Shown here: positions 25,109 to 26,149 of the stretch, piece after piece | Layout: every line of letters begins with the position of its first letter | How positions within the stretch are numbered: position 1 is the stretch's first letter | NCBI RefSeq assembly: GCF_003334785.1 | Contig: NZ_QOWV01000001.1 | Strand: one strand, 5' to 3' | Source: Escherichia coli | GTDB lineage: Bacteria > Pseudomonadota > Gammaproteobacteria > Enterobacterales > Enterobacteriaceae | DNA: 64,000 nucleotides | Made by a program: the position numbers and the translations under genes | The notes under the pieces: model-generated | Database searches by the model: none | Told to the model about the DNA's origin: nothing | The model's input: the letters and a program-made list of their open reading frames with translations, nothing else

Positions 25109-26149
25109 TTAAGCCTGCGGCTGAGTTACAACGTCTTTGATACCTTTAACTTCGATCTCTACGCGACGATCCGGAGCCAGGCAGTCGATCAGTGCAGCAC
25201 GCTGTTTCACGTTGTCACAGGTGTTGCCAGTAACCGGGTTGGATTCGCCCATACCACGTGCGGAGATCTTGTCTGCCGGGATACCTTTGGAGATCAGGTA
25301 ATCAACAACAGACTGAGCACGGCGCTCGGACAGACCCTGGTTGTAAGCGTCAGAACCGATGCGGTCGGTGTAACCCAGAACAACTACGGAACCGTCTTTC
25401 GGATCCAGGTTGCTCAGCTGGCTGTACAGCTGATCCAGAGCAGCCTGACCTTCCGGTTTCAGGGTTGCTTTGTTGAAGTTGAACAGAACGTCAGACTTCA
25501 GAGTGAAGTGCTTGGTCTGTACTTCCGGTGCCGGAGCTGGAGCCGGAGCAACTACTGGAGCTGCTTCGCCCTGACCGAAACGGTAGGAAACACCCAGGCT
25601 CAGCATGCCGTTGTCCGGACGAGTGCCGATGGTGTGTGCGTCACCGATGTTGTTGGTCCACTGGTATTCCAGACGGGTAGCGATTTCAGGAGTGATCGCG
25701 TACTCAACACCGCCAGCGAAGACCGGAGAAACGCCGGTGTCGTGGTTTTTACCATAAACGTTGGATTTAGTGTCTGCACGCCATACCATGCCACCCAGAC
25801 GAGTGTAGATGTCCAGGTCGTCAGTGATTGGGTAACCCAGTTTAGCGGTCAGTTGAACGCCCTGAGCTTTGTATGCACCGTTTACAACGCTGCCTTTGTA
25901 CGGCATACGACCTAACCAGTCGTAACCCATTTCAAAGCCAACATACGGGTTAACCTGGTAACCACCAAAAGCACCAGCGCCCAGTTGGTTTTCATGGGTC
26001 GGGCCATTGTTGTTGATGAAACCAGTGTCATGGTACTGGGACCAGCCCAGTTTAGCACCAGTGTACCAGGTGTTATCTTTCGGAGCGGCCTGCGCTACGG
26101 TAGCGAAACCAGCCAGTGCCACTGCAATCGCGATAGCTGTCTTTTTCAT
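25109..26149 (-). CDS. ompA: Outer membrane protein A
   Basis: ORF trimmed to [21 protein letters not shown], 346 aa; has the APAPAPAP hinge and C-terminal OmpA domain. Confidence 0.95.

Follow-up and report, generated by a model that had tools for sequence, protein, structure and literature searches.

A naturally occurring Glu-to-Val allele at the loop-2 tip of Escherichia coli OmpA, at a residue unusually variable in wild strains

Introduction

The ompA gene has repeatedly been found under positive selection in E. coli (PMC9110714). Hypervariable regions of OmpA lie at the loop apices, HVR2 being the apex of loop 2 (bioRxiv 10.1101/2021.09.21.461324), and the hypervariable triplet of this loop consists of residues 66-68 (PMC5413513; bioRxiv 10.1101/2021.09.21.461324). 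Among 78 environmental isolates, the triplet read SVE in 51% and DNI in 46%, with one isolate carrying SVA and one SVV (Liao et al. 2017, PMC5413513 Table 3A). The 'NI' of Shigella flexneri loop 2 influences entry of phage Sf6 (bioRxiv 10.1101/2021.09.21.461324), for which the loop-2 substitutions D66A and N67E have been reported. In AlphaFold and molecular-dynamics models, and so in silico only, residues R262 and R181 of type 1 Gp38 phage adhesins are set against E89 of OmpA (PMC12032242), and nanobodies raised to OmpA touch all four loops and are escaped by loop variants (PMC12259851).

In this study, we analysed a 64,000-nucleotide stretch of an E. coli genome (contig NZ_QOWV01000001.1; hereafter the window) in which OmpA carries Val in place of Glu at mature residue 68 (E68V, or E89V in precursor numbering). 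The K-12 protein (P0A910; WP_000750416.1, pattern I) is encoded in the same sulA-ompA-matP neighbourhood and differs from that of the window in having Glu at mature residue 68. All four loop states of the window (N25 / SVV / SNVYGKN / H) recur in isolate 3 of Liao et al. 2017 (Front Microbiol, PMC5413513), a one-off variant of SVE that was published as loop patterns only, so that the comparison is one of loops. The SVV pattern has thus been on record since 2017 as a rare variant found in nature. The natural E68K form of OmpA-short (GSVKNG) affects the same codon on the same background and is more common than any other replacement, being present in 118 of 5426 complete genomes, roughly ten times as often as Val, and on at least 1000 public contigs; it reverses the charge of residue 68, whereas E68V removes it, and it occurs in the clinical strains of PMC12259851. 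The 'DNI' alleles (ompA2, 'OmpA-long', patterns II/III), along with the OmpA of Salmonella and Shigella flexneri, have an aliphatic Ile68, like the Val of the window, but in the DNI alleles residues 66-67 are Asp-Asn, and usually loop 1 is different and loop 3 longer.

The same substitution has also been engineered. OmpA-NN, a seven-fold loop charge mutant made for folding studies and not a natural protein, carries E89V (Machin et al. 2023, Nat Chem, PMC10695831), Val having been picked because, among aligned homologues of OmpA, it was the commonest alternative there (PMC10695831). As far as they are set out in the account that PMC6499177 gives of Morona, Klose and Henning (1984), the phage-resistant ompA missense mutants selected in K-12 carry single loop substitutions with which OmpA stays in the membrane and its receptor function is altered. 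The receptor residues listed in that account are 25, 70, 110 and 154, all four of which are as in K-12 in the window, whereas the natural change is at residue 68, which is not on the list (PMC6499177). Within the literature covered, a search for OmpA residue 68 returned nothing relevant. Residue 68 is said to have featured as well in a 1985 follow-up on phage-resistant ompA mutants.

Results

A K-12-type ompA with Val at codon 89

In the window, ompA lies between an open reading frame (ORF) for MatP (24581-25033) and one for SulA (26506-27021), and this sulA-ompA-matP order is common to the window, annotated K-12 and wild genomes. The features of the gene are as follows:

25109..26149, minus strand: ompA coding sequence, K-12-type 'short' allele, 346 codons (a precursor of 346 amino acids) plus stop, from the ORF and its translation
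26087..26149, minus strand: signal peptide, codons 1-21, the same as in K-12 OmpA
25574..26086, minus strand: N-terminal eight-stranded beta-barrel (mature residues 1-171), which bears the four surface loops, from the match of PDB 1QJP and 1BXW over residues 1-171
25883..25891, minus strand: loop-2 hypervariable triplet, mature residues 66-68, Ser-Val-Val ('SVV'), from PMC5413513 Table 3A and alignment
25883..25885, minus strand: codon 89, mature residue 68, GTA (Val) for GAA (Glu), the variant base being window position 25884

Compared base by base with K-12 MG1655, the gene is identical at 1040 of 1041 nucleotides and 345 of 346 residues. The sole difference is at base 266 of the coding sequence, A in K-12 and T here, which turns GAA into GTA; the plus strand at 25883-25885 accordingly reads TAC, that is, GTA (Val) in ompA. 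The mature number, 89 less 21, presumes the established processing site of P0A910. The initial annotation had proposed Val at this codon where K-12 has Glu, giving the K-12 sequence as GSVENGAYKAQ. Alignment with MG1655 bears out its coordinates, its codon and its reference sequence, the reference having Glu and not Val at residue 68, and the MG1655 OmpA printed in PMC6995065 contains the same GSVENGAYKAQ.

That the protein is OmpA, with a signal peptide, the eight-stranded barrel with its four loops, an Ala/Pro-rich hinge and an OmpA-like C-terminal domain that binds peptidoglycan, follows from its near-identity to K-12 OmpA (345 of 346 residues), its gene context and its match to the PDB entries for the OmpA barrel (1QJP, 1BXW, 1G90 and 2GE4, E about 1e-116); in every matching genome among 5426 complete E. 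coli genomes the product is labelled 'porin OmpA'. Characteristic of the SVE type ('OmpA-short', pattern I) are N25, Ser-Val at residues 66-67, the short loop 3 SNVYGKN and the His of loop 4 (GDAHT), all of which the window has. Pattern I also has Glu at mature residue 68; the Val of the window therefore places its allele in the published rare sub-pattern SVV and not in pattern I proper. With E68V, the sole acidic residue of the loop-2 tip triplet is gone. An alignment of protein-cluster members is fully variable in this stretch at residues 66-68 and nowhere else, with Ile68 ('DNI') both in Salmonella and in the second major E. coli allele, and Val68 ('DTV') in Yokenella regensburgei. Since an aliphatic residue 68 is normal in DNI-type E. 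coli, Salmonella and Yokenella, Val lies within the ordinary variation of the family, and E68V could be functionally mild.

An ORF of 135 amino acids with a GTG start (25508-25915, plus strand) spans the variant codon in antisense. It comes from the mechanical ORF list only and shows no sign of expression, and we treated it not as a gene but as a mechanical ORF within the highly expressed ompA.

The Val allele occurs in wild E. coli

Of the 5426 complete E. coli genomes searched, 11 have an ompA 100% identical to that of the window. The sources of these strains are animal (swine and farmed frogs), environmental (sediment) and human, and geographically they span China, Viet Nam, Korea and Cambodia as well as the UK, France and Germany; the RefSeq protein of their records is WP_024201506.1. 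To count the variant base itself, we ran megablast with a 55-nt query centred on it, a setting in which an exact 28-nt word is needed and every seed thus covers the centre base. T (Val) was present in 12 and A (Glu) in 3164 of the 5426 genomes, the remaining approximately 2250 having another local context (about 41% of complete genomes are without the SVE-type context). Val is then present in about 0.2% of the complete genomes as a whole, and in about 0.4% of those genes whose context is K-12-type (SVE). An exact-sequence look-up over approximately 15 billion proteins placed the exact Val protein on 522 public contigs. Its presence in 12 complete genomes and on 522 contigs establishes E68V as a genuine, naturally occurring missense allele of wild strains; the change is not peculiar to the window strain, and is a rare allele catalogued in wild isolates. 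Given that Val is rare, any advantage it brings would be local or transient.

Val carriers fall on several flanking haplotypes

Comparison of the window with MG1655 over 38.5 kb gave seven differing sites. Five are synonymous and the other two are appC N214D and ompA E89V; with seven differences over this length, the window is not K-12. The appC change (codon 214, window position 44475) is the sole other non-synonymous difference in the 38.5 kb, with Asp in the window and Asn in K-12. The AppC protein accession of the window is common to all wild genomes that were fetched, and N214 looks K-12-specific.

The best matches among complete genomes, NCTC9087, NCTC9104 and BS74R-D, are each one mismatch from the window in 24 kb and lack Val. 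Between NCTC9087, which has Glu, and window positions 7500-45990 (38.5 kb), the ompA base and one 1-nt indel are the only differences, the indel lying in ycbX, which is annotated as frameshifted in the NCTC9087 record. Val is therefore the sole substitution between the window haplotype and an existing Glu haplotype. Taken together with the window, the 12 Val carriers divide by 36 kb of flanking sequence into at least four haplotype groups, separated by as many as 62 SNPs:

Group 1: the window, OZ121069, VE-F10 and PEC399 (0-4 SNPs apart), with SHP24 and 74-2 near
Group 2: F467, LCP30S3_I3 and HCP30S3_I2, 10-15 SNPs from the window
Group 3: ET776, ES9 and ET5, 52-55 SNPs from the window
Group 4: FLI21, 62 SNPs from the window

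Every one of these groups has relatives without Val that are closer to it than relatives with Val. Five genomes are at three mismatches from F467 in 24 kb, none of them with Val, and one of the five, BL12 (NZ_CP079780.1), has Ala. Beyond its own members, the ET776 group has nearest relatives (7-8 mismatches) that are also without Val. ET776 itself and E8 (NZ_CP104526.1), which has Ala, have near-identical 24-kb flanks (about 10 mismatches). In the F467/BL12 and ET776/E8 pairs, different replacements of codon 89 thus sit on closely related haplotypes.

That Val haplotypes have nearest relatives lacking Val argues that the allele was acquired more than once, and from the flanks Val appears to have been gained repeatedly, through mutation or short-patch recombination. 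The closest polymorphisms lie 653 bp upstream of the variant base and 1252 bp downstream of it, and all Val carriers have in common, with one another and with Glu carriers, a block of 1.5 kb or more without any difference. Because flank diversity near ompA is very low, flank SNPs do not separate recurrent mutation from short-patch recombination.

Residue 68 is replaced by every amino acid one base change away

Single substitutions on the K-12-type OmpA were sought by exact-sequence look-up. The counts below are of public contigs and, like those of genomes, represent sampled clones and not independent events:

Wild type (Glu68): at least 1000 contigs
E68K: at least 1000 contigs
E68A: 675 contigs
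E68V: 522 contigs
E68Q: 476 contigs
E68D: 253 contigs
E68G: 154 contigs

All six amino acids that are one base change from Glu are therefore present at residue 68, on 154 to at least 1000 contigs each, and E68I, for which two base changes are needed, was absent from the same look-up. As controls, we took the E-to-K and E-to-V substitutions at five other Glu codons, situated in loop 1, the barrel, a periplasmic turn, the hinge and the C-terminal domain. Six of these ten control substitutions were absent and four were on 1-3 contigs in the same look-up; at E32, the control in loop 1, Lys was on at most 3 contigs and Val on none.

A census of codon 89 in the 5426 complete genomes, again a count of sampled clones and with Asp counted at the protein level only (253 contigs, above), gave AAA (Lys) in 118, CAA (Gln) in 13, GTA (Val) in 12, GCA (Ala) in 11 and GGA (Gly) in 3, and the synonymous codon GAG (Glu) in none of the 5426. 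The replacements involve various base changes at all three codon positions, which argues against a simple mutational hot spot, and mere lack of constraint is hard to square with the absence of GAG, a synonymous transition. The pattern at residue 68 is suggestive evidence for diversifying selection, not proof, and on these sequence counts the site is probably under such selection.

Lesions in the elf fimbrial usher gene

At 7403-7470 on the plus strand, within elfC/ycbS (ORF 5278-7491), the window has a perfect 34-bp tandem duplication, the unit being CAGCACCAGGCGCAGAGAATACTCGTGTGGCGAA, followed by a 7-nt microhomology, CAGCACC. The duplication frameshifts the fimbrial usher gene elfC, with an ORF of 737 amino acids as against 866. 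The unit is single-copy in K-12, in NCTC9087 and in 11 of the 12 Val carriers, F467 being without that part of the elf operon, and the junction of the duplication had no match in the 5426 complete genomes. Among the Val carriers, elfC is annotated as frameshifted or with an internal stop in 74-2, LCP30S3_I3 and ET5 (loci L002, L009 and L006, about 38000-40055), and in F467 (locus L012, 36385-37175) a deletion fuses ycbU to ssuA, with most of the elf operon gone. The duplication in the window, the elfC lesions in the three other strains and the deletion in F467 suggest repeated decay of the elf (ycb) fimbrial usher in this group of strains.

Discussion

We propose that E68V would have arisen when one A became T on a K-12-like haplotype of phylogroup A; it removes from the tip of surface loop 2 the one acidic side chain inside the hypervariable patch 66-68. 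Wild E. coli appear repeatedly to swap Glu68 for any amino acid one mutation away, and most likely they would be driven to do so by loop-docking ligands of OmpA that exert diversifying selection. Leading candidates for the agent would be OmpA-dependent T-even-type phages, whose Gp38 arginines have been modelled in contact with this very Glu, with colicins, bacteriocins and host factors as alternatives; E68V may weaken salt-bridge recognition by some phage adhesins or by other loop-binding ligands. On balance, we favour this account, in which E68V is a natural allele at a residue-68 hot spot, most likely kept by diversifying selection from loop-docking ligands, with phage the leading candidate. 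The initial annotation had placed the residue in surface loop 2 and suggested that its change could reflect selection for phage resistance. As to the loop and to selection, this view fares well, since residue 68 belongs to the loop-2 triplet 66-68 and its variation fits diversifying selection, whereas phage resistance is a step that we infer.

The spread of codons at position 89 could also be read as neutral or near-neutral polymorphism, with an unconstrained loop-2 tip subject to drift and clonal expansion and free of ligand-driven selection. Val is rare (12 of 5426 genomes), the natural alleles between them have E, K, Q, A, V, G, D or I at this position, which tolerates them all, and the loop segment has been called highly mobile (PMC5413513), all of which would sit well with drift. 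Relaxed constraint should, however, also leave the synonymous transition GAG, which is in none of the 5426 genomes, and the exposed E32 of loop 1, with Lys on at most three contigs and Val on none, stands against hundreds to thousands of contigs for replacements at residue 68. The presence of Val on several haplotypes, with nearest relatives that are without it, also speaks against neutrality, which we consider unlikely, though by no means negligible, as the explanation of the allele. If there is selection, its agent need not be phage: OmpA-dependent colicins or bacteriocins, host defences (antibodies, neutrophil elastase or other OmpA-binding proteins) and the role of surface charge in adhesion are all conceivable. 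OmpA alleles alter surface charge, hydrophobicity and sensitivity to elastase (PMC9560509), loop variants escape nanobodies that contact all four loops (PMC12259851), and one negative charge is lost through E68V. Against this, the loop-2 variant was uncorrelated with the measured surface properties (PMC9560509), and the present evidence does not distinguish such agents from phage; we hold a non-phage agent to be improbable.

With a one-base difference from K-12 ompA, the window might come from a phage-resistant K-12 mutant selected in the laboratory, or its Val might reflect an error of sequencing or assembly. We dismissed both, and regard them as almost certainly wrong. Seven sites in 38.5 kb separate the window from MG1655, elfC in the window has a private 34-bp duplication, the haplotype of the window matches those of wild isolates save at codon 89, and the T base recurs in 12 independent complete genomes of wild strains, with the exact protein on 522 contigs.

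Diversifying selection by loop-docking ligands is thus the reading that we prefer. At surface residue 68 such selection is plausible, and we infer that selection, not drift, maintains the allele, and that phage are the selecting agent. A more far-reaching form of this idea, which we offer tentatively, is that Glu68 may be a single-residue arms-race site, replaced independently by K, Q, A, V, G and D across lineages while a synonymous change never rises. Each replacement might then escape a different subset of phages or bacteriocins, with Val as a recurrent escape state. We see this as a real possibility, but incline slightly against it.

For the window alone, the Val allele is a minor and ordinary finding, that of a catalogued rare OmpA variant, which may shift the sensitivity of the strain to some OmpA-dependent phages, to colicins and to OmpA binders such as diagnostic nanobodies. 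The spectrum of replacements at residue 68 is an only mildly noteworthy by-product. It offers a compact panel of six point mutants, useful for mapping how phage adhesins, bacteriocins and antibodies read OmpA, and variation at this residue bears on the prediction of host range in phage therapy and on OmpA-based vaccines and diagnostics.
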